Shown here: one piece after another, positions 5,048 through 39,660 of the stretch
Layout of the letters: the number at the start of each line of letters is the position of its first letter
How positions within the stretch are numbered: position 1 is the first letter of the stretch
Source of the DNA: Octopus vulgaris
Taxonomy: Eukaryota
Assembly: GCA_951406725.2 (NCBI GenBank)
Contig: OX597821.1
Coordinates: 63,550,001-63,614,000 of the forward strand
Length of the DNA stretch: 64,000 nucleotides
Reading direction: 5' to 3'
Program-made: the position numbers and the translations under genes
The notes under the pieces: generated by a model
What the model saw: only the letters and a program-made list of their open reading frames with translations
Told to the model about the DNA's origin: nothing
The model's database searches: none

Positions 5048-6635
5048 CGAAGTACAGTATTATACTGAGTGTATCAAAGCCTTGCAACCGTTGTTGCATT
5101 TTAGTCAAGTAGTCCTAAGTTCAACATATTCAAGGAATAAACTTCCTGTTTTACCGTACACAATAATTCTCTTCCCCTTTTTAGAGGTTAATATGTGGTT
5201 ATACCAGAATTTGACTGCCATTTCCAGTAATTTGAGCAGCGATATAGTAACCTACACTTGAATGACTCGAACCAATATTTCAGTAGGCTTCACGTAGGTC
5301 TAATCCGCTGTTTTAGCCACAAGGCCTGCAATTATGATGGGAGAGTATTATTCGAAACCATCAGGGTAGAACGTAGCTCATACGTTATTTTAGCAACCCC
5401 GAGGCAAAAAGGAAAATGGCAAGTTGTGCGCTGAATAATGTGAAGTCAGAACGTAAACCGCTGGGAGGTATACGACAAGTCATCATTTTCCCAACTCCCA
5501 GCCCGTTGCATTACGCGTGTCCCTCAATTCTTTGAAGCTTTTGATGTTGTTGCCAAATCCGAGATCGATTCTGATTAAGCCAACCCATGAGCGAATTGTG
5601 TTTGCTATAACCATTCCCTCTTTCTATTTATGAAGGGCTATGCTGCTCATGTGGTAAAACGTCTTTGTGCGCTTTGAAGGAAATTTGAAGGAACAATCTT
5701 TCGTTGTTCCACCAATCAACAAGTGTTAGGTTCGTTCGGCTCATAATGACACGCACCAATTAGTACCACCACTTAACTTTTAGGGTTGTTTACATAAGCT
5801 TTCATTCATGGCCATTTATTCCATTATTCTTTCACGTTTTTAACTGCGGCCAAGCTGGGACAACGCCTATAAGTGTTTAGTCGATCAAAAGCAGGTCCAA
5901 TAGATATTTTGATTATTCTATCGCTCTCTCTCTCTCTTTACTTAACCGCTGTCACACGGGAACCTAAACAAATCTGTATATCTTTTCAAGTGGTGAAAGG
6001 CAAGCACAATACATACGTGCGCGCGCATATACACACACATGCACACACGTACTGACAACAAATTCTCTCCTCCAAATTCACTATCAATACATAAGAAAGT
6101 CCACGGCTATGGCAAACACTACTTGCTCAAATTGCTGTGTAGGTGAGCCGGTCCCAACATCCGAAGGTTTGAAGAAACTTTCGTAACCACACAAATATGC
6201 CTACATATTACTCATAGAAATATCTACGAACAACAAAAAACAATACAACAGTATAACATCTCGCCTCCATCTTGTATTTATTTTATTGATTTGGTTTTAA
6301 GAAAGTGGCTGTGCACCCTGCATTCATCGATCTCCTTTCAATATCATGTAGAGATTAACGTGAAGCATGGCATTGGAGACCAATATTAAATGACATGAGA
6401 AGGTGAGAGAAAATGAGGCAGTAGTGCCAGACTAGTGGTGCTGGGGGGGCTTGGAATCTCCTTCGAACAGAGGCCTTTATTGTTATTAATAAATAATAAA
6501 GAAATCATTATAGCAGTAAAAAGCTCAAAAGAGGCCAGAATAAGGAGACAGCGCTTCTAGTTTTAGCGGGACTATATGTGCTGGTGTACAACTTCAAGTC
6601 GTGCTTTTCATGAAGTCATATGCTTTTATGTACAA

Positions 6636-6653
6636 TAAATAATAATAATAACA

Positions 6654-6714
<61 letters not shown>

Positions 6715-6730
6715 TGATGATGATGATGAT

Positions 6731-6800
<70 letters not shown>
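6636..6800. repeat. (AAT)n/(GAT)n microsatellite
   Basis: Direct inspection; possibly the tail of a degraded LINE immediately upstream. Confidence 0.95.
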
Positions 6801-7684
6801 TTGATGTTCTAAATTGAGGCCCCCTCAACCCAAAAAGGATTAAAAGGGAAGAAGGCGAGCAACAATAGTTGCCTGCCGAAGGACCCTAAGGCTTCGGTAG
6901 GTGGGTGAGAGACTCCGGACAAAGCGGAAGAGCTCCACTCTCCCGAAGTCAGGAAGAAATGAAAAAAAGAAAGAAGAACTGGTCATTGCCCGGGGGTGGG
7001 GTTGATGTGCATGTCCCGAAGTTGTACCACCCACGCTGGAAAAAACGACCCCCACCCTTAAAGATGATGAATTAATTATCTTTTTCTACAAGGGCGGGAG
7101 TGGAAAAAGTAGTAGAAGAACATAAAGAGACAGTATATATGCCTTTCACACGGGATCCCGAATGGCCTCCGCAGATATCTGCGGAGGTCATAAGGTTTCC
7201 CTTGTGGGAAAGGCTTAAAGGATTTGGGGAGGAGTGTCGCATATGGCCGGGTGGCCCTTACACGACTTACGTGCCCTACATGAGTGAGGCATGGGAAATT
7301 GACGGGATACAGGAACTCAAGCGGCATTGAAGATAATGATGAATATATCGATGGATATATCAATGAGCAGGAGGTGAAGAAGCCTCGTTAGAGGGTTTGA
7401 AACCTCATCTTATTGTATTATTTGTAGTGGTTTATAACCTCAATTGCGTGTTTAAAAAACAAAACATGTTACGTAAGAGGTTTTAGTGCATCTTCCTTGT
7501 AAGAGGTTTGAAACCTCATATTGATATTTAAAAGAAAGAAAATATGTTTTCGAGAAAAATCCAATCGGCGGGTGTTGAGTTTCGTCTCTCATTTATTCAT
7601 TTTATTTCATTTTCATTCATTAATGTGTTTTTCCAGCCCGCAAAGCTACACAATCTTTGTACTGTCTATATGACAAATTTTATG

Positions 7685-7828
7685 AAATAAGTAGCTTGCT
7701 TACCGACCACATGGGCCCTGGTACAGTCCTACAGCATGCCATCTTGGGCAAGTGCCTTCTACTGTAGCCTCGAGCTGACTTAAGTCTTGTAAGTGGATTT
7801 GGTGGACGGAAACTGAAAGAAGCCCGTC

Positions 7829-7860
<32 letters not shown>

Positions 7861-8095
7861 GTGTGTGTGTGTATCTCTATCTGCGTGTTTGTGTGTGTGC
7901 ATGTTTGTGTGTCTGTGTTTGTCCCCCTCCACCATCGCTCGACAGCCGATATTGATGTGTTTACTTAGTGGTTCTCAGTGGTTCGGCAAAAAAATGAATA
8001 ATAGAATAAGTACTAGGCTTACAAAGAATAAGTCTTGGAGGGCGGTCCTCCAGCGTGGTCGCAGTCAAATGATTGAAACAAGTAAAAGAATAAAA

Positions 8096-16344: not shown

Positions 16345-16930
16345 CATATATAGATAAAACTTACTTGGAAAAGGATGCGTGGCGTTCGATCATATAATAA
16401 TATAAATATATGCATATATATATACATATATGTACATACCTACATCTATATGTATATATACGTACATATATGGGTACAGGACATCAAAAAAACGTTGAAC
16501 ACAATGAGAAACGAAAACATAAAAACAAAAACATGGAAACGAACTTTTTTTCAAACAACGAAAAAACAGAGTACAAGACATACAACTTAAACCCCTCGCA
16601 AAAAATCCCAACTTTTATTTAATTTGCTTTGCGGGAAAGACCGTTTCAACGAAGTCGCGTCTTGTCCTTACCTTCGTAATGCGGAGAAGGTGAAATAGGG
16701 ACAACTGAAGAAGGGCAATATTCCTTGTTTTTTATGTCTTGTACTCTGTTTTTTCGTTGTTTGAAAAAAAGGTCGTTTTCATGTTTTTGTTTTTATGTTT
16801 TCATTTCACATTGAGTTCAACGTTATTTTTATGTCCTGCACCCATATATGCATGTATATATACATATAAATGTAGGTATGTACATATATGCATGTATATA
16901 TGCATATATTTATATATTATTTATATTATT
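16335..16930 (+). mobile_element. Fold-back (TA)n insert, family E
   Basis: Arms ~16393-16582 / 16733-16925; a second, single-arm copy lies at 39285-39660. Confidence 0.7.
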
Positions 16931-16952
16931 ATATATAGATAGAGATATTTAG

Positions 16953-18300: not shown

Positions 18301-18485
18301 TATATAATATTATTATATATAAAAACCACTATTTTGCAAAACAAACAAGGAAAGACTTAATCAATACATAAAATTTTAATAAAAAGTCAAAATAACCGCC
18401 ACTACAATTGTTTCTTGTCCTGATCGACAATCTTCAGGTGGACTTCCAATCTAAAATATCAATATTTTAAAATATAAAAATAATA
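18301..18485 (-). repeat. Inverted partial pLTR at the PLE 5' end
   Basis: Reverse complement of ~20002-20186 and ~26840-27024. Confidence 0.92.
18399..18441 (-). ncRNA. Minimal type I hammerhead ribozyme (inverted copy)
   Basis: Reverse complement: ccac CTGAAGA ttgtc-gatcag-gacaa GAAA caattg TA gtgg. Confidence 0.85.
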
Positions 18486-20266
18486 TGAGGCTTATATGTA
18501 CTTGTGGGTGTGTGTGAGTGGGGTGGGTGTTTGTATTTGTTATGGGTGTGTGGTTTACGTGTGTGTATTTGTGTGTGAATGTATAGGTTAAAGGGATTGC
18601 TATATAAGTATGTTGTAAGGTTTAGTAAAGGGAGGTTTTATCATTTATGTTTTTATGAGTTTTAATTTATCATGGTAGTTTTATTAAAGAATCCATTCAT
18701 AATTTTTTTGAATAATGTTAGTTTACCGCGTGAATATAATTTTTAATTCCATTTATTCTATTTCTCCATTCATAATTTTAAATGACGTTTGCTTCCATAG
18801 CGCGTATTCTTTTTATACATAAGTTATGTTCCTATGGTAACGTAATTTTGGTTTGATGCTTTTAACGGCTTAGAATTTAATTTCACTTCATAATTTGAAA
18901 CTGACTTGAAAGTATGTATATTATTTCTCCTTATGTCATATTGTTATTTTTGATATTCTGGTTACTTACGATGTATTTTATATATCGTATTATGTGTAAT
19001 AATGTTGTTTTTCTTTGGAGTGTTTATGTATGTGGGATTGTGTGTGAGTGTGTGCGTATTTTAGTTGTATAATTTATTTATCTGTATGAGTGTGGGTGTG
19101 TTAATATTGTTGTATATATCGAGTTTAGTGAGTATGTATATGTATATGGTGTGTGTTTTACGTATGTATATTTGTGTGTGAATGTGTTTATGGGTTTGCT
19201 ATATAGGTTTGGGGATGTATGTGTTTATTTATCTGTGTGGGGTTGAGTGGGTTTTTGGAGTATATATTGAGGTTTATATGTATGTATAGGTATGTGTGAG
19301 TGAGGTGGGTATTTGTATATGTCGTGGGTGTGTGGTTTACGTGTGTGTATTTGTGTGTGAATGTTTAGGTTAGGGGGATTGCTATATAGGTATGTTATAG
19401 AGTTTAGTAAAGGGAGATTTTATCATTATATGTTTTTGTGAGTTTTGGTTTATCATGGTGGTTTTGTTAAGGAATTCGTAGTAATTTGTGTCTATTTGCG
19501 ATGTCTGTTGTTTTGTTACATTGTTTCATTCATAATTTTTAAGTAATGTTCGTTTTACCAAGTGAATATAATTTTTAATTCCATTTATTCCATTTCTCCA
19601 TTCATAATTTTAAATGATGTCCGTTTCTAGAGCGAGAATGTGGGTTGTATGTGTGTGTGAGGGAGTATGAATAAGTATTGTGTTGAAGTATTTGGCTATT
19701 TTATTTATTTATCGTTGCCTAGACGTTTTTATGTGTATGTATAGGGATATATATATAGGTGTGTGATTTAGTGTATGTATTTAGATATGGTTATATATAA
19801 TTAGTTATATGTGTATGGGTGTATATATAGTTTATTTTTTGTTCTGTTTTATATTTTATATTTTATATTTTATATTTAATTGTTGATAGGTTTATTTTAG
19901 TTTATATATTGTTTATATATTGATTATATATGGATTATATATAGGTTATATATAGATTATATATTTATATTTTTTCATTAATACTTTAATTATTTTAAAA
20001 TTATTATTTTTATATTTTAAAATATTGATATTTTAGATTGGAAGTCCACCTGAAGATTGTCGTTCAGGACAAGAAACAATTGTAGTGGCGGTTATTTTGA
20101 CTTTTTATTAAAATTTTATGTATTGATTAAGTCTTTCCTTGTTTGTTTTGCAAAATAGTGGTTTTGTCTCTAATAATATTATATAATATTTTACTATAAA
20201 ATTGGATTTAATCCTAAATCTGATTTTTTCCCTGTAAATTTGGATTTATTCCCTAATATTTATTAT
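18486..20266 (+). repeat. 5' pseudo-LTR, 1781 bp
   Basis: Direct repeat of 25324-27104 at constant offset 6838; roughly a dozen substitutions seen by eye. Confidence 0.95.
20046..20088 (+). ncRNA. Minimal type I hammerhead ribozyme
   Basis: Stem I ccac/gtgg, core CTGAAGA, stem II ttgtc/gacaa, GAAA, palindromic stem III caattg, cleavage site GUA; this is the PLE-type HHR that can work as a dimer. Confidence 0.88.
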
Positions 20267-20323
20267 TTTTATTTAATATTGATAATTTTGTATATTGAGT
20301 GTAATACCTCAATTTCGTAAATT

Positions 20324-22846
20324 ATGGATTTTACAGGTAAGGTAGAACCGCTGTTTTGGGATTCATCTTTGAAATATATTCCTATTCCTTCTAGAAAGGA
20401 ATTTATCTTGAAACTTGTTAATAATGTTAAAGATTTTATTTCTAGAATTAAATGGAAAGCTTTTTACTATAATTTTTATTTATTTAATGATATTGATAGT
20501 AGGAATGATAATTTTACCTCTAAATTCAAATCTAGAAAGGAACCTCCATTTAATAAAGAATTACAATTACTTGAAGATAGTATATGGAAGGTGGTAAAAA
20601 ATATTGAATTCCATAAATACCCAAATAGAAATAATGAATATTTAAGGAACTTAGCAATTAAAATTAAAGATATGAGAAATATGGATGGTATTATAGTACA
20701 ATCTGATAAAACAAGGAACCTATATAAATTAGATGTTAAATTATATGATAAACTATTAGGGAAAGAAATAATTAAAAAATATAAAATTGTTCCAGATGAT
20801 ATTCTTTATAATATTAATAAGGCCTCTAAATTAGTAATGTTAAAATATGAGTTGGATAATAAAACTGAACCTTATGTACCTTTGCACCCCAGAATTACTC
20901 TTAAAGACCATAAAGATAATTTTTATTCAGACCCTAAAGTTAGATTAATTTGCCCATGTAAATCGGACCTAGGTAAATTAAGTAAATTTATTTTAGATAA
21001 ATATATCGATAAGTTATATAAACTTAATTATTTAAAATTATGGTTTAGTAATAACAATACATTGAAATGGTTTAATAATATTAAAGATAAAAATCGTTAT
21101 AAATTTATTCAAATAGATATAGATAATTATTATTCTTCTATTAATGAAATTGTGTTTAATAAAGCGCTTATTTTCGCAATGAATAAAGTGGGTATGTCAC
21201 GGGAAGAAATTAATGTAATTAAAATGGCTAGGAAATCGCAAATTATTAAATATAAAAATAAATTATGGGCTAGGAATGATACTAGGGATTGTTTTGATAT
21301 ACCTATGGGAGCACCAGATTCTGCACAGGCTACTGATTTAGTAGGTATTTTTCTTTTATCTGAACTCCAATTAGAAAATCTTAAGATAGAGGGTGGCTTA
21401 TATAGAGACGATCTTCTACTAGTTACAAAGAATTGTAATAATAGGAATCTAGAAGTATATAAGAAAAAACTATATAGTTTCTTTAAAAGATATGGTTTAA
21501 GTATTACTATATATAAGGAGAATTATAATGTTAATTACTTAGATGTTAATTTTAATCTTATTACTGGTAAAACACAACCATATCATAAACTTAATGAGAA
21601 CCTTAGATATATAAATGTTAATAGTAATCACCCATTTTCTATTAAAAAATCGTTGATTAATAATATAAGTAAACGTATTTCATTACTCTCTTATGATATA
21701 GAGATTTTTAATAAACATGCTAATTATTATAATGAGGCCCTTAGAGGGGCAGGTTATAATAGGAATATTAAATTTTATAATATTAGTGATAAAGATTTAA
21801 ATGATAATTTTCGAGATACTTCTAATTATAATTATAATTTTGTTAGGTTTAGTGGTAAAAAAAATAATAGATATTATAAAAATAATAAAAATGATAAAAA
21901 TATAAATAAGAATAATAATAATAATAATAAAAATAATAATAATAATAATACAAATAAGAATAATAAAAATAAAAATAAATTTAATAATTATTATAATAAT
22001 TATATTGATAAAATTAATAATATTAATAATTCCTTAAATGCTGTACATAGATATAATTCTGATAATAATTTTAATAAAATAAAGAATTATAAATATATTT
22101 ATAATAATGATAATAATAATAAGGTTAATAAGAATAAAATTTGGTTAATAGTTCCTTATGGAGATCAAGTAAAAACGAATATTATTAAAGAGATTTTAGA
22201 TGTTATAGAACTATTTATTAGAGATAATCGTAAATATAGAAACATTTTCTCTATTAATAATTTTGGAGTAGGTTATTCTACCACTAATAATGTAGGTAAC
22301 ATTATTTCTTCATTTAATAAATATAAACTGAATAATTTTTATAAAAAGAAATTATTTGATAATAATATTAATAATGTTAAGACTTATATTAATTGTACAT
22401 GTAGAGATAAATCTAATTGTATATTAAATAATAATTGTGGTATTAACGATGTAGTGTATAAATGTATAGTTACATTACATGATAATAACTTTAAGAATAA
22501 TAATTACCCAAAAGCGGTTTATATAGGTTCTACTTCCTCAAAAATAAAATTAAGAATCGCACAACATATGAATTCTTTTAAAAATAAAAACTTAATCAAC
22601 TCAACCCGACTTAGTAAGTACATTTGGAGTCTTAAATCACTAAATATTAATTATAGTTTAATTTGGGAAATAATTTGTAAATCTAAATCATATACTATAG
22701 GAGCTAATTGTTGTTATTTATGCTCTAATGAGTTTAAAGAAATTTTATTTTATAAGTATGATAATTTACTTAATACTGGTGAAGAGCGCAAAATAAAATG
22801 CAGACATAAGTTACTTTACCTATATAATAAGTTTCATGATAAATAG
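20324..22846 (+). CDS. PLE reverse transcriptase + C-terminal GIY-YIG endonuclease (840 aa)
   Basis: RT motifs SDKTRN, KDHK, PKVRLI, IDIDNYYSSI, DIPMGAPDS, GLYRDD, NYLDVNF, YINVNSNHP. Asn-rich insertion, then CxCx5C (CTCRDKSNC), then endonuclease VVY...VYIGST..KLRIAQH...CYLC.NE...LLN...KCRH. Confidence 0.95.
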   Translation: MDFTGKVEPLFWDSSLKYIPIPSRKEFILKLVNNVKDFISRIKWKAFYYNFYLFNDIDSRNDNFTSKFKSRKEPPFNKELQLLEDSIWKVVKNIEFHKYPNRNNEYLRNLAIKIKDMRNMDGIIVQSDKTRNLYKLDVKLYDKLLGKEIIKKYKIVPDDILYNINKASKLVMLKYELDNKTEPYVPLHPRITLKDHKDNFYSDPKVRLICPCKSDLGKLSKFILDKYIDKLYKLNYLKLWFSNNNTLKWFNNIKDKNRYKFIQIDIDNYYSSINEIVFNKALIFAMNKVGMSREEINVIKMARKSQIIKYKNKLWARNDTRDCFDIPMGAPDSAQATDLVGIFLLSELQLENLKIEGGLYRDDLLLVTKNCNNRNLEVYKKKLYSFFKRYGLSITIYKENYNVNYLDVNFNLITGKTQPYHKLNENLRYINVNSNHPFSIKKSLINNISKRISLLSYDIEIFNKHANYYNEALRGAGYNRNIKFYNISDKDLNDNFRDTSNYNYNFVRFSGKKNNRYYKNNKNDKNINKNNNNNNKNNNNNNTNKNNKNKNKFNNYYNNYIDKINNINNSLNAVHRYNSDNNFNKIKNYKYIYNNDNNNKVNKNKIWLIVPYGDQVKTNIIKEILDVIELFIRDNRKYRNIFSINNFGVGYSTTNNVGNIISSFNKYKLNNFYKKKLFDNNINNVKTYINCTCRDKSNCILNNNCGINDVVYKCIVTLHDNNFKNNNYPKAVYIGSTSSKIKLRIAQHMNSFKNKNLINSTRLSKYIWSLKSLNINYSLIWEIICKSKSYTIGANCCYLCSNEFKEILFYKYDNLLNTGEERKIKCRHKLLYLYNKFHDK

Positions 22847-24267
22847 CATTAATAGTTCCCTATTAGGTTACTTTAGTTTAGTTTAATTTAGTTTAGATAA
22901 TTATATATATTTGGTTATGTAGTCTAGGCTTTAATTATAGTTAGTCTTTATTGATATTTCTTTGTTTTAATTAGTTCATTTTTAATGTATATTAATATAA
23001 CAGTTTATGGTACGTTAAAACTTTAATAATTTATATTAGATTTTTTTATTTTCTTTAATTATATATATATTTTTTTAATTTTATTTTATTATGTATTTTT
23101 ATTATGCATTTGTTATATGTATATTGGAGGATATATTTATTTGGTTGATGGGTGTTATTTAGTGGTGTATATATTGAGTTTTGTATGTATGTATGAATGT
23201 TTACGATCCCTTTGTTTTTTATTTGGTATGTTGAATTGACAGATTTTATTTGGGTATTGTCTGTTATAATAAAGTACACACACCCATAACAAATACAAGT
23301 GCCCACCTCATTCACACGTACCTGGAATTACATATAAACCTCAACATATACACCAAAAAACCACTCCCACCCCACACGGACAAATAAACACATACATCCC
23401 CAAAAATGGGCGCAATCCCACTCACACCAATCATACATGTATACAATTACACACACAAGAACAATACATAACTAACCCAAATATACAGAACATACTACAA
23501 ATCACCAACAAACCACCATCACAAATGAAACCCACACCCATACAATGACAAAACTCCCCCCTCCATACCCAATTACACCCACATAGCAATCCCCATATAT
23601 TCATCCATACACAAACACACATACGCAAAACACACACAAACAACACATACGTACAACCCCCCAAACACACTCATATACATACGTATCAAACTCGACATCC
23701 ACAACAATACGCTCACACCCACTCACACCCAGATAAACAAACTACACAACCAAAAAACGCAAACACACACGTGTGCGTATTTTAATTGTGCAATTCACCC
23801 ATCCGCATGAATGCGGGCGCGAACACACCGTTGCACATATTGAGCCCAACAAGCATGCACATGTACATGTGAGGGGGTACACGCACATGCCGTGCGCGTA
23901 TACCCCCCGCACTTATACCCGTGCGTGAATATACACATGGAGACTACCACACAGGTACAAACGTGCATAGCAAAGGGAGCCCCATCACTACACTCAATGC
24001 ATACTCTCACCCATCCGCACGGATGTAGAAGCGAATCACCGGTGCATATATTGAGGCTCATACGTAGCACTATGGAGGCGTACGTCATTAAAATTATGAA
24101 TGGAATAAATGGAATTGGGAATTGTAACCGGGTGGTAGGCTAGCGTTACTTGAAATTGGGAATGGAATAATGTGGTGAAATGGCAGACGTCGGGAGTAGA
24201 CGTGGATTGCTACAAATTGTTTGTTAGAACTACCAAGATAAACTAAAACTCATAAATACATATAGTA

Positions 24268-25310
24268 ATTTATCATGGTAGTTTTATTAAAGAATCCATT
24301 CATAATTTTTTTAAGTAGTGTTGGTTTGCCGCGTGAATAGAGTTTTTAATTCCATTTATTCTATTTCTCCATTCATAATTTTAAATGATGTTTGCTTCCA
24401 TAGCGCGTATTCTTTTTATACATAAGTTATGTTCCTATGGTAACGTGATTTTGGTTTGATTTTTTTAACGGCTTAGAATTTAATTTCACTTCATAATTTG
24501 AAAGTGACTTGAAAGTATGTATATTATTTCTCCTTATGTCATATTGTTATTTTTGATATTCTGGTTAATTACGATGTATTTTATATATCGTTTTATGTGT
24601 AATAATGTTGTTTTTCTTTGGAGTGTTTATGTATGTGAGATTGTGTGTGAGTGTGTGCGTATTTTAGTTGTATAATTTATTTATCTGTATGAGTGTGGGT
24701 GTGTAAATATTGTTGTATATATCGAGTTTAGTGAGTATGTATATGCGTATATGTGAGGGAGTATATGTATATGTTGTGTGAATGTGTTTTACGTATGTAT
24801 ATTTGTGTGTGAATGTGTATATGGGTTTGTTATATAGGTTTGGGGATGTATGTGTTAATTTGTCTGTGTGGGGAGGGAGTGGGTTCTTGGTGTATATTGA
24901 GGTTTATACGTTAGTATAGGTATGTGTGAGTGAGGTGGGTATTTGTATAAGTAGTGGGTCTGTGGTTTACGTGTGTGTATTTGTGTGTGAACGTTTAGGT
25001 TAGGGGGATTGCTATTTAGGTTTGTTATAGAGTTTAGCAAAGGGAGATTTTATCATTATATGTTTTTGTGAGTTTTGGTTTATCATGGTAGTTTTGTTAA
25101 GGAATTCGTAGTAATTTGTCTATTTACGATGTTTGTTGTTTTGTTACATTGTTTCATTCATAATTTTTGAGTGGTGTTCGTTTTACCACTTGAATATTAT
25201 TTTTAATTCCATTTATTCCATTTCTCCATTCATAATTTTAAAAGATGTTCGTTTCCAGAGCGGGAATACTTTTTATACATATGTTAGGTTCCTTGGTAAC
25301 GTAATTTTGT
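24268..25310 (+). repeat. Additional tandem copy of pLTR-internal units in the PLE 3' UTR
   Basis: 24268-25270 resembles 25503-26475 and 18665-19635. A ~360-400 bp subrepeat starts at 18486, 19268, 24898, 25324 and 26106. Confidence 0.85.
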
Positions 25311-25323
25311 TTGGTGTATATGT

Positions 25324-27104
25324 TGAGGCTTATATGTACTTGTGGGTGTGTGTGAGTGGGGTGGGTGTTTGTATTTGTTATGGGTGTGTGGTTTACGTGT
25401 GTGTATTTGTGTGTGAATGTATAGGTTAAAGGGATTGCTATATAAGTATGTTATAGGGTTTAGTAAAGGGAGGTTTTATCATTTATGTTTTTATGAGTTT
25501 TGATTTATCATGGTAGTTTTATTAAAGAATCCATTCATAATTTTTTTAAATAATGTTAGTTTACCGCGTGAATATAATTTTTAATTCCATTTATTCTATT
25601 TCTCCATTCATAATTTTAAATGACGTTTGCTTCCATAGCGCGTATTCTTTTTATACATAAGTTATGTTCCTATGGTAACGTAATTTTGGTTTGATGCTTT
25701 TAACGGCTTAGAATTTAATTTCACTTCATAATTTGAAACTGACTTGAAAGTATGTATATTATTTCTCCTTATGTCATATTGTTATTTTTGATATTCTGGT
25801 TACTTACGATGTATTTTATATATCGTTTTATGTGTAATAATGTTGTTTTTCTTTGGAGTGTTTATGTATGTGGGATTGTGTGTGAGTGTGTGCGTATTTT
25901 AGTTGTATAATTTATTTATCTGTATGAGTGTGGGTGTGTTAATATTGTTGTATATATCGAGTTTAGTGAGTATGTATATGTATATGGTGTGTGTTTTACG
26001 TATGTATATTTGTGTGTGAATGTGTTTATGGGTTTGCTATATAGGTTTGGGGATGTATGTGTTTATTTATCTGTGTGGGGTTGAGTGGGTTTTTGGAGTA
26101 TATATTGAGGTTTATATGTATGTATAGGTATGTGTGAGTGAGGTGGGTATTTGTATATGTCGTGGGTGTGTGGTTTACGTGTGTGTATTTGTGTGTGAAT
26201 GTTTAGGTTAGGGGGATTGCTATATAGGTATGTTATAGAGTTTAGTAAAGGGAGATTTTATCATTATATGTTTTTGTGAGTTTTGGTTTATCATGGTGGT
26301 TTTGTTAAGGAATTCGTAGTAATTTGTGTCTATTTGCGATGTCTGTTGTTTTGTTACATTGTTTCATTCATAATTTTTAAGTAATGTTCGTTTTACCAAG
26401 TGAATATAATTTTTAATTCCATTTATACCATTTCTCCATTCATAATTTTAAATGATGTCCGTTTCTAGAGCGGGAATGTGGGTTGTATGTGTGTGTGTGG
26501 GAGTATGAATAAGTATTGTGTTGAAGTATTTGGCTATTTTATTTATTTATCGTTGCCTAGACGTTTTTATGTGTATGTATACGGATATATATATAGGTGT
26601 GTGATTTAGTGTATGTATTTAGATATGGTTATATATAATTAGTTATATGTGTATGGGTGTATATATAGTTTATTTTTTATTCTGTTTTATATTTTATATT
26701 TTATATTTTATATTTAATTGTTGATAGGTTTATTTTAGTTTATATATTGTTTATATATTGATTATATATGGATTATATATAGGTTATATATAGATTATAT
26801 ATTTATATTTTTTCATTAATACTTTAATTATTTTAAAATTATTATTTTTATATTTTAAAATATTGATATTTTAGATTGGAAGTCCACCTGAAGATTGTCG
26901 ATCAGGACAAGAAACAATTGTAGTGGCGGTTATTTTGACTTTTTATTAAAATTTTATGTATTGATTAAGTCTTTCCTTGTTTGTTTTGCAAAATAGTGGT
27001 TTTGTCTCTAATAATATTATATAATATTTTACTATAAAATTGGATTTAATCCTAAATCTGATTTTTTCCCTGTAAATTTGGATTTATTCCCTAATATTTA
27101 TTAT
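25324..27104 (+). repeat. 3' pseudo-LTR, 1781 bp
   Basis: Direct repeat of 18486-20266; ends at TA-rich sequence. Confidence 0.95.
26884..26926 (+). ncRNA. Minimal type I hammerhead ribozyme
   Basis: ccac CTGAAGA ttgtc-gatcag-gacaa GAAA caattg TA gtgg. Confidence 0.88.
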
Positions 27105-27464
27105 ATATTTATATATATATATATATACATGCATACATGTACATATACACACATATTTATATATATTTATATTTATATATGTATGCATGTGTTTGCAAAC
27201 CACACTCAAGCTTCAGTTTCCACTCATCGTTGGAGAATTTGGGATACTTTGGATAATATCGGAATTGTAAATTACCTAACCGCAGAGAACTTACAACCAG
27301 CTGTCACCGTTACGTCGTTCTGTCGCGCCAATTTTTAGTATGCTCCTCCTTGCTATGCCTTTTATTTTTACGGATCTTTTGTATTGAATACCATATATAT
27401 TTCTATATACATATGCACAGACACACATAAACAAGTACACACACACACACACACATTAGCCACT

Positions 27465-28656: not shown

Positions 28657-31600
28657 CAGGGGCGTGCACTCTCAGCAATGCAAGGTATGCGCTGCATGCC
28701 TTCCTTGTTTCAAAGAAAATACGTCCAGTTGTTTTAGAAATATTGTCTCCACTTCGTACATCTGCTTTGATAAATGCTTTTAGAAGATCGCATGATACAC
28801 ACTCCCTCTCTGTCTGTATTAGTTTGTCCTTCCTTCCTCTCTCTCTCTCTCTTTCTATCTTAGTGACTCGATAAATTTATCGCTTGTCATGCGTTGGGAA
28901 GACAGCATGAGTCCCTTCTCTCTGTCTTTGATAGTTTGTCCCTTCTCCCTCTTTCTTTGTTTAAAAGATATACTACGAGGAATGGTCACCCCCTTCTCTC
29001 TCAGCGATTCGACAAATTCAGTTTGGCGTGTCATGCTGTGCTTAGATCGCATATTACGCCTCTGGCTATTTTGACCGGAACACGAGCCGTCCCATAATTC
29101 TTGTTTTAGCCAGCTGAAATGTTGGAATAGCCTTCGCATGTAAGTTTGAAATTTTTTATCCAAAACATCCGTTTGCACTATCATATTTTTAGAAAGTTTT
29201 GAAAGCAAAAATATCTACATTATATTTCTTATTTCAGAAATAGCTAATTAATCTTAAATTAATTTAACAAAGGGTATTTTTTCCGTTTTGTTGAAATTGA
29301 CTTAAAATTTACGCCGGCGCTTCCACGTGGGTCCTTAAATAAGAGCAGCCTTTTTAAAAATGAGTGAAATGTGTGCTATAAACGATATTTTGAGAACTAG
29401 TTTTTCTAAAAGGGACTTCGATGGGAAAAAATTAATTATAAATCGCGGGAGACCAACACCGAATTTACCTAATTTGCGAAGCTACAACAAGAAATTCACG
29501 AGACAATTTCAGGTTAATTCGTATGAAAAGAAGAAATGGTTAACTGGAAGTGTTGCTCTTAATAAATTATTCTGTTGGCCGTGTTTACTTTTTGGTTTAG
29601 AAAAAAATGTTTGGAATGATAAAGGCTATGATGATTTAAATAATTTACATATGGCTATGCTAAAGCACGAGCGTTCTCAAAGGCATATAAAATGTTTGAT
29701 AGACCTTAAAATATTCGGGAATGTTCGCATAGACTTACAATTAGATGCACGTAAAAATCAAAGCATACAACAGCATAATGAGAAAGTTCGACGAAACAGA
29801 TCCATTCTGCAACGATTGATCGATGTTGTTATTTTTAGGCCTCCAGGAATTATCGTTTCGGGGTCATTTTGAATCTGAAGGCTCTAATAATCGGGGAAAT
29901 TATAAAGAACTCGTTTATTTGATCAGTAAGTATGACAAACAAATGGAAAGTCATTTAGATACAGCTTCTATCTTCACTGGTCTGTCGAACAGAATTCAAA
30001 ATGACTTGATCGAAGCAATTCATAAAGTTATGTTGAATGAGATGCAGAAGGAAATTGACCAAGCTAAGTTTGTTTCTATTCTTGTTGATGAGATATCTGA
30101 TGTCTCAGCATCTTCACAATTGTCAACAGTTTTACGTTATGTTACAGAAGACTGTGTGACGAAAGAACGATTTATCGGTTTTAGTGATGTTAGTGCAGAT
30201 CGATCTGCAAATGCTTTATCTGAACATGTTTTTAAATGCATTGAGACGTGGGAATGTGGAAACAAATTGATTGCGCAGACATATGATGGTGCCGCTACAA
30301 TGGCAGGACAACTAAATGGGTTACAGGCAAAAGTAAGAAAGAAATATGAATGTGCGATCTTTATTCATTGTTGTGCCCATATCCTAAATTTAGTTCTTTC
30401 ACAATCATGCTCTGCTATGAAAGAATGCAAGATATTTTTTTCTACAATAAATGGACTCGGTACATTTTTTACGAAATCACCGAAAAGGACTAATGCATTA
30501 GATAATATTGTTAAAAAAAGATTTCCGAAAGCAACAGCAACTAGATGGAATTACTCCTCACGTCTTATTATTACCACAAAGGAAAATTATAATTTCATAA
30601 TCAGCCTTTTTGAACACATCATTGAAAATCCTGAAGCATGGGATGAGACCACCATAAATTCAGCAATTGGATTCTTACACATTTTAAAAGCTCCTGATTT
30701 CTTATTTTTGTTAGAGGTATTCAGTGACATTTTTTCTTTTACTGACGTCTTATTTAACATACTCCAGAGTAAAAGTCATGACATAGTGTATTGTAAACAG
30801 CAAATAGATAAAACTAGAACTGTACTCGAAAACAAACTTGATAATTTTTCAGTCTTTTATGATAGGTTAGGGGAAAAATATGGAGTCGATGCAGGAATCG
30901 GAATTCAGAGATCCAAGAATATATCTATTGATCCCCAACGACATTATAGAACGCTTTATAACAAAATTATAAGTACAATAGTTGACCAAATAAAAGCACG
31001 ATATTCATCCTTAGAAGTGTTTAAATTCATGGAACTTTTGAATTTCAACAAAGTTGATGAGTATTGCAAACAATTTCCTGTGGACTCTTTAGATTCTTTA
31101 AGAACAACTTATGGCAGATTTTTTGATGTAATACGATTACAAAGTGAGCTCAATGTGATGTATTCAATGAAAGATTTTAAAAAACCAAGTGTAAGTCATT
31201 TAATGAGTTACATTAACAGCACTGATCTTGTTGAAGCTATGCCAGAACTCTTCAATCTGTGCAAGTTGATTTTGACAATTCCGTCTACCACTGCTTCTGT
31301 AGAGCGATCCTTTTCTGCATTAAGTAGAATTAAAACATACCAAAGAAATGCGACAGGAGAAAGAAGACTGTCTAGGTTAGCACTAATGTCAATTGAAAAA
31401 GATTTATTACAAGAATTGATGAAAAGAGAAGATTTCTATGAAAATGTGATAGATATATTTGCCCAGAAAGATCGAAGAATTGAATTAATTTATAAATGAG
31501 CTAAGTAACATTTTAAAACATTAAAAAAATATATATTAAAGAGCATATATTACAGGTTTTGCTTAGTGTTTGTTATAACGTAAGGTTCGACCTTCTTACA

Positions 31601-39284: not shown

Positions 39285-39660
39285 ATATATATCCCAAATT
39301 ATATTTAATTTGCTTTGCGGGAAGGACTGTTTCAACGAAGCCGCGTATTGTCCTTGCCCTCGTAGCGCGGGGTTGATGAAAAAGGGACAACTGATGAAGG
39401 AGTATATTCTTTATGTTGCATGTCTCGTTTCTCTGTTTGTTTTCTTCGATGTTCGAAGAAGTTCGTCTTCTATAATTTTGTTTTTATGTTTTCGTGTCTC
39501 ATTGTGTTCAAGGTTTTTGATATCCTGTACCTATATATGCATGTATATATACATATGTATGTAGGCATGTACATATATGTAAGTATATATGCATATATTT
39601 ATATATTATTTCTATTATTATATGACTGAACGCCACACATCCCTTTCTAAGTAAGTTATA
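39285..39660 (+). mobile_element. Family E insert (single arm)
   Basis: Homologous to 16605-16930 and to the reverse complement of 16335-16400; ends in (TA)n. Confidence 0.7.

Follow-up and report, generated by a model that had tools for sequence, protein, structure and literature searches.

Results

A Penelope-like element with a fold-back in its 3′ UTR

The window, that is, the whole stretch of 64,000 nucleotides that was analysed, carries an insertion of a Penelope-like element (PLE) spanning about 18301-27113, with the apparently edited block studied here in its 3′ UTR. The insertion holds a single, intact open reading frame (20321-22846, plus strand; 841 aa from stop to stop). By eye, we located YRDD at aa 360, which we take to be the reverse transcriptase (RT) motif, and, towards the C-terminus, VVY at about 710 and VYIGST at 732, which we take to mark a GIY-YIG-like endonuclease. 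The atlas neighbours of the ORF, at 0.95-0.98, bear HTH_animal, GIY-YIG and RVT_1; a local Pfam search of the 841-aa ORF gave no family at E 0.001, and PDB sequence searches with it gave no match. One protein match alone bore a species name, Octopus bimaculoides (64% identity over 12% of the query), which makes an octopus-type host likely. Between RT and endonuclease lies an Asn/Lys-rich low-complexity stretch made of AAT-rich repeats (21750-22150). Tandem pLTR units occupy 24268-27113 (plus strand), where 25324-27113 repeats 18486-20275 at 99.2%, and an inverted 5′ piece of the insertion (18301-18485, minus strand) matches 20002-20185 at 97%. With RT and, at the C-terminus, GIY-YIG in one ORF, the element is predicted to belong to the endonuclease-bearing PLEs, and it has the partial-tandem pLTRs and inverted 5′ piece of that group, an arrangement that fits the description given in the accessible text of PMC8557442; PLE structure is described there and in PMC11167929. 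The C-terminal endonuclease speaks against Naiad, as PMC8557442 defines it.

A minimal hammerhead-like motif was matched by pattern at 26884-26926 (plus strand), with further ones at 20050 (plus) and 18437 (minus): three cores were found against 0.54 expected, one per pLTR end, their stems being read by eye. Neither Rfam nor the minimum free energy (MFE) fold recovered a hammerhead in the pLTR, and at gathering score Rfam returned no family of any kind, just weak miRNA matches on simple repeats. The sense strand of the pLTR is G/T-rich and C-poor (1-5 C per 100 nt over 24600-25099). Upstream of the insertion, 16400-16915 is an inverted repeat with 186-nt arms, 92% complementary, which is probably a small MITE-like repeat; 16826-16934 is also similar to 39515-39623. 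Downstream, 29339-31499 (plus strand) holds two adjacent frames; DUF4371 and the hAT dimerisation domain are matched by the longer one (29820-31499), and the pair is predicted to be a hAT transposase split in two.

A sequence-only reading of the window had described a fold-back in the 3′ UTR with a strongly skewed spectrum of changes, and its counts were reproduced exactly. The right arm (23771-23860), set ungapped against 24653-24742, differs at 30 positions (22 T>C, 4 G>A, 1 A>G, 1 C>T and 2 transversions), and the left arm (23691-23764), set against the reverse complement of 24653-24726, shows 9 T>C, no other transitions and 8 transversions. Both sites preceded by G on the minus strand (23802 and 23840) are unchanged, as it stated, and the hairpin does pair in antisense rather than in sense RNA: for 23540-23995 the fold energy is −236.9 kcal/mol on the minus strand versus −90.4 kcal/mol on the plus strand, the former giving one long hairpin (z −19) and the latter no long hairpin. 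The pLTR unit at 24653, which had been named as the source of the arms, is instead a paralogue. The edited arms extend over about 23340-23764 and 23771-24066, and the inverted block as a whole covers 23277-24264.

The block at 23277-24264 lies on the minus strand relative to its ancestral orientation, being found the other way round 3′ of the ORF in the copies L093 and L035. Its left arm (about 23340-23764, minus strand) is the former direct arm of a first fold-back and its right arm (23771-24066, minus strand) the former inverted duplicate, which carries a ~140-nt deletion after 23993. Compared with L138, a copy without the fold-back, the right arm shows T>C at 73 of 131 T, which is A>G on the minus strand, and on that strand the left arm shows A>G at 53 of 107 A; 126 of the 238 ancestral A's are thus still G on that strand in the window. 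Segment 23760-24080 matches at least 40 genomic places near full length with 90-100% identity (41 matches; 40 of 183 candidates scored), so that the block is family-wide and a base-calling artefact is rejected. In four copies (L042, L045, L074 and L088), partial tandems restart near 23953 or 24002, within the edited right arm, which suggests recurrent truncation or template-jump points.

Three family stages

We searched the genome (2.8 Gb, 227 contigs) and assembled a set of copies from 37 of the 40 other matches to the block, 3 further ones, 60 of the 150 listed RT matches, and 20 matches to two segments absent from the window; all copy counts are lower bounds, and counts over copies are not statistically independent. 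The copies fall into three stages. In stage 0 (L085, L086, L089, L096, L130 and L136-L150) the fold-back is absent. In stage 1, represented by at least six copies (L093, L131-L134 and L035; L135 is a fragment), a ~435-bp inverted duplicate adjoins its source and the hairpin lies on the sense strand. In stage 2, which comprises at least 58 copies including that of the window, block 23277-24264 is flipped and a UTR segment of ~850 bp is gone. No alignment to the UTR was obtained for the divergent loci L120-L129.

In a tree built on ORF and UTR sequence at 21900-23270, which lies clear of the edited region, stage 0 comes out paraphyletic, with stage 1 nested in it, support of 1.0 for stages 1 and 2 together, and stage 2 nested within stage 1; 8 of the 26 stage-0/1 loci are omitted from this tree as they retain too little of the region. 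L035 is placed at the base of stage 2 without resolution, and it has the ~140-nt deletion in common with stage 2. The tree thus gives the order 0, 1, 2. Outgroup copies have A/T at the changed sites; the direction assumed in the sequence-only reading, A>G, is therefore borne out, and the alternative in which C is ancestral and the other units underwent C>T is ruled out.

A burst of sense A>G in the first fold-back

For the first event, 11 stage-0 copies supplied the ancestral states and five stage-1 copies the derived ones. On the sense strand, the two arms of the ~435-bp duplex changed A>G at 162 of 301 A's (54%), with 51/105 in the direct arm and 111/196 in the inverted arm, whereas outside the pairing none of the 102 A's in 411 positions became G (p 3e-28 against the arms). 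That A>G affected both arms of one strand, now the minus strand, had been noted from the window; in the family the changes end where the pairing ends. All other changes number 14 in both arms and 4 in the 411 flanking positions; on the sense strand T>C stands at 1/300, C>T at 5/132 and G>A at 1/132. Among stage-0 copies, A>G is limited to 5 of 1160 A cells. Among 288 sites compared in the five stage-1 copies, 144 are G in all and 119 in none, with 157-164 of the 301 per copy, which points to essentially one burst in their founder. In L093 the hairpin has 434 pairs, including 171 G·U and a single A·C.

The A>G rate varied with the neighbouring bases, from 0.64 after A and 0.60 after U to 0.42 after C and 0.34 after G, and from 0.76 before G and 0.67 before A to 0.52 before C and 0.46 before U. 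The neighbour bias expected of ADAR was thus found in the family copies, as depletion of an upstream G, although in this first event it is modest (10/29 edited versus 152/269 for other upstream neighbours, p 0.03) and stems from the inverted arm (1/9), being absent in the direct arm alone (9/20 versus 42/84). Taken together, the reconstructed states show that the ancestor gained an inverted duplication of ~435 bp in its 3′ UTR/pLTR, that, on the sense strand of both arms, roughly one A in two turned to G in what was essentially a single step, and that the apparently edited copy kept transposing afterwards.

Inversion and a second layer of A>G

Comparison of stages 1 and 2 shows that a block of ~990 bp was flipped later, so that the old edits now read T>C. 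Because of this inversion, the old hairpin is A·C-mismatched and no longer folds in sense RNA. Of the two routes proposed from the window, inversion or copying from an antisense transcript, the inversion is the one seen, and the antisense transcript is not required, since at least six copies hold the block in the sense orientation.

The inversion created new inverted pairs, 24099-24264 with 25057-25222 (90%) and 24067-24197 with 24268-24406 (84%). The new inverted arm (24067-24264, plus strand) carries a second A>G layer, at 32/102 sites in the window and 73/102 in the family. Its near partner (24268-24406, plus strand; 84% complementary) has sense A>G at 11/48 sites, counted over 24268-24460, and its far partner (25057-25254, plus strand; 90% complementary) at 10/54 in the window and 22/82 in the family, counted over 25001-25300. 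An inverted segment at 23277-23404 (plus strand), which pairs with 24839-24964 at 87.5%, shows post-inversion sense A>G at 20/94 sites in 23277-23480. Counting A>G carried by at least two of the 58 stage-2 copies, the duplex-capable segments changed at 136/309 sites, against T>C at 2/323; elsewhere A>G stands at 33/457 in other UTR and 2/841 in the ORF, most of the 33 other-UTR sites lying in a weaker duplex (23689-23797/24666-24801). This second layer lies on the plus strand, and minus-strand A>G in the arms since the inversion is near zero (T>C 2/42 and 0/16): the direction of A>G tracks the sense strand of the element, not the sequence. Upstream G is again depleted (5/30 versus 157/373, p 0.006), more clearly than in the first event, and G>A in the second-event duplexes is 4/126.

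Each of eleven early-branching copies, which are 1-4% apart elsewhere, has 50-87 G, and the sets overlap only in part: all eleven have G at 21 sites, and many sites are mosaic. The four-gamete test fails for 36 of 68 neighbouring site pairs among them, which fits repeated independent editing of favoured sites better than recombination. The copies as aligned show that the new inverted repeats gained sense A>G, differently in each early daughter. Full-length copies of a later subfamily have ~85-93 G of ~295, with little further change. Singleton changes in the duplex regions of the 58 copies are symmetric (A>G 24/309, T>C 23/323); most copies thus show no editing in the form of changes private to them, which speaks against ongoing editing at each insertion. 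A single MFE fold predicts the edited sites weakly (45/128 in long stems versus 123/542), since two partners compete for the new arm.

A sense C>T bias independent of pairing

Among the changes shared within the 58 copies, sense C>T is enriched across the element (20324-25300). It is equal inside and outside duplexes (36/139 versus 64/255, p 0.9), is visible in the ORF (C>T 11/172 versus G>A 1/243, p 4e-4) and favours a following purine (A 67/234, G 22/72, T 16/135, C 6/124). A strand-biased mutation other than A>G therefore operates in this element, and ADAR does not account for it; with its CpA/CpG preference, it may explain the C-poor strand of the pLTR. Several of the G>A changes counted in the window are common to L035, and these changes are likely products of the same structure-independent bias, acting before the flip.

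Discussion

RT reads inosine as G. The most probable reading of these data, to which we give a probability of about 0.86, is that the sense A's of the paired arms became G through ADAR acting on the dsRNA of the element, the inosines being copied as G by the element's own RT. The pattern has the marks of ADAR hyper-editing as far as base changes can carry them: A>G confined to one strand (162/301 versus T>C 1/300 in the first event), limited to long dsRNA on both arms in the first event as in the second layer, dense in a single molecule (the 144 of 288 sites common to the five stage-1 copies, about half of the A's in one step), and depleted after G in both events, if modestly in the first. Depletion of upstream G is the motif that ADARs have in common, and invertebrates prefer a downstream A, according to the accessible text of PMC5625713. 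Because A>G lies on the sense strand in both the first and the second events, the edited molecule would have been the sense RNA, not the antisense. The proposal that edited hairpin RNA had been reverse-transcribed and fixed, made from the window alone, is supported in the family, with ADAR as the enzyme that we infer. Four genomic loci have an adenosine-deaminase domain (PF02137) above cut-off, which could mean ADAR or the tRNA-specific ADAT. At one of them (G000:C6:132220394-132222819) the domain lies in just two long exons; the loci on C1, C5 and C30 are multi-exon.

In the proposed series of steps, the fold-back duplication would have arisen by template switching, and the first burst would correspond to ADAR hyper-editing of the RNA followed by reverse transcription and germline insertion. 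After the flip, editing may have slowed once ~30% of the duplex A's had become G; the larger later subfamily presumably goes back to one edited lineage.

Other enzymes or substrates make for a very improbable explanation. The PF02137 loci could include an ADAT, so an ADAT/TadA-like enzyme might have acted, or ADAR might have edited the sense DNA of a hybrid or of a DNA hairpin, and ADAR is indeed described as editing the DNA of DNA:RNA hybrids on model substrates (review PMC12925331, accessible text). Deamination of first-strand cDNA would, however, yield sense T>C, which is not seen, and this disfavours the cDNA route; an RNA:cDNA hybrid covers the whole element, yet the ORF is untouched (2/841), and the changes track intramolecular pairing. 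CpG decay and APOBEC have the wrong direction and strand: APOBEC makes G-to-A changes on the sense strand and was not found in 19 invertebrates, according to the accessible text of PMC4866542, and here G>A amounts to 1/132 in the first event and 4/126 in the second-event duplexes.

Error-prone copying, in which RT or a second-strand polymerase misplaces G opposite T and T opposite G at the hairpin, would give sense A>G together with C>T; the sense C>T bias does exist, and second-strand wobble errors would produce both changes. We consider this very improbable, as C>T reached only 5/132 in the first event against 162/301 for A>G and is the same in and out of duplexes, which A>G is not. An error of 54% at one base with a sharp edge and a neighbour bias is not known from any polymerase. 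The composition of the pLTR sense strand, G/T-rich and C-poor, and the fact that A>G preserves pairing by wobble would suit gradual strand-biased mutation with selection for a G·U-paired hairpin; this is largely refuted by the 162 A>G on a branch where the arms took just 14 other changes and the flanks 4, by the scarcity of A>G in stage-0 copies (5 in 1160), and by the later loss of the hairpin from the sense strand while the element continued to spread. Copying of the block from an antisense RNA that was transcribed from the present arrangement and edited has in its favour that the hairpin of the window folds on the minus strand only, and it is refuted unless the order of the tree is reversed: six copies with the same edits in the sense orientation branch before stage 2, and minus-strand A>G has been near zero since the inversion.

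RNA editing is usually regarded as non-heritable. The dated series observed here (before, edited, flipped, edited again) likely records A-to-I edits fixed in inherited DNA of an element that stayed intact, and several known systems resemble it in part. ADAR-type A-to-G hypermutation is described for avian retroviruses (Rous-associated virus, avian leukosis virus; Felder 1994, Hajjar and Linial 1995) in the accessible text of review PMC12925331, where an inverted repeat likewise has about half of its A's turned into G and fixed via reverse transcription; here, by contrast, the element is a non-viral retrotransposon of an animal genome, and its changes are inherited, have multiplied into subfamilies and form two layers in opposite orientations. 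Among L1-made pseudogene insertions, 3 of 235 bear clustered T>C confined to inverted Alus, so that edited dsRNA was put into chromosomal DNA by a retrotransposon RT within duplex bounds, but these concern passenger mRNAs in cultured human cells and are not inherited (PMC11702581, accessible text), whereas here the lineage of an autonomous element itself appears edited, with its ORF intact and its activity predicted. APOBEC editing of LTR retrotransposons similarly leaves a host deaminase footprint in genomic copies, fixed in one step and inflating apparent age, though as sense G-to-A on the cDNA of LTR elements in vertebrates, as far as the accessible text of PMC4866542 describes it; the present changes, in an invertebrate-type genome, are sense A>G and keep to RNA duplexes. 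That Penelope RNA serves ADAR as a substrate is known: this RNA is hyper-edited at more than 40,000 sites in lizard, and hyper-editing is very high in Octopus bimaculoides, but that is at the RNA level, and DNA fixation is not described in the accessible text of PMC5625713. Our literature search, covering few subscription papers and no supplements, found no report of ADAR edits fixed in Penelope-like elements. In plant mitochondria, retroprocessing copies edited transcripts back into the genome; it differs in concerning C-to-U at specific sites of organelle genes, with no mobile element. The route itself is known from avian retroviruses and L1-made insertions; this locus contributes a natural series that is complete and includes a switch of orientation, so that antisense templates and sequence-intrinsic bias are ruled out.

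The series would imply ADAR activity on retrotransposon RNA in germline cells and RNA that, once edited, can still be reverse transcribed and inserted. It offers a DNA-only means to read past RNA structure and strand, and a warning that hairpin regions inflate estimates of transposon age. A broader reading, which we hold to be slightly better than an even bet, is that ADAR is a recurrent, heritable mutator of Penelope elements that works as a ratchet. The insertion mechanism would keep making inverted repeats; each new duplex would undergo hyper-editing in the RNA of germline cells, within one or a few rounds of transposition, until G·U pairs blunt editing; and edited copies would survive and found new subfamilies. 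If so, the ratchet and the sense C>T bias together would account for the G/T-rich strand of the pLTR, and the layers would record past transcript orientation and germline RNA structure, a fossil read-out of ADAR specificity.

Two further fold-backs were encountered among the copies. L129 (G000:C31, oriented 7379-7934) has one of 278 pairs with 99 A·C and 7 G·U, set in microsatellite-rich DNA with a divergent PLE ORF (51% identity) several kb away; it looks like another hairpin edited on one strand, unpolarised. L106 (G000:C15, oriented 6542-6924) holds a degenerate fold-back with 82 A·C against 14 G·U and many other mismatches.
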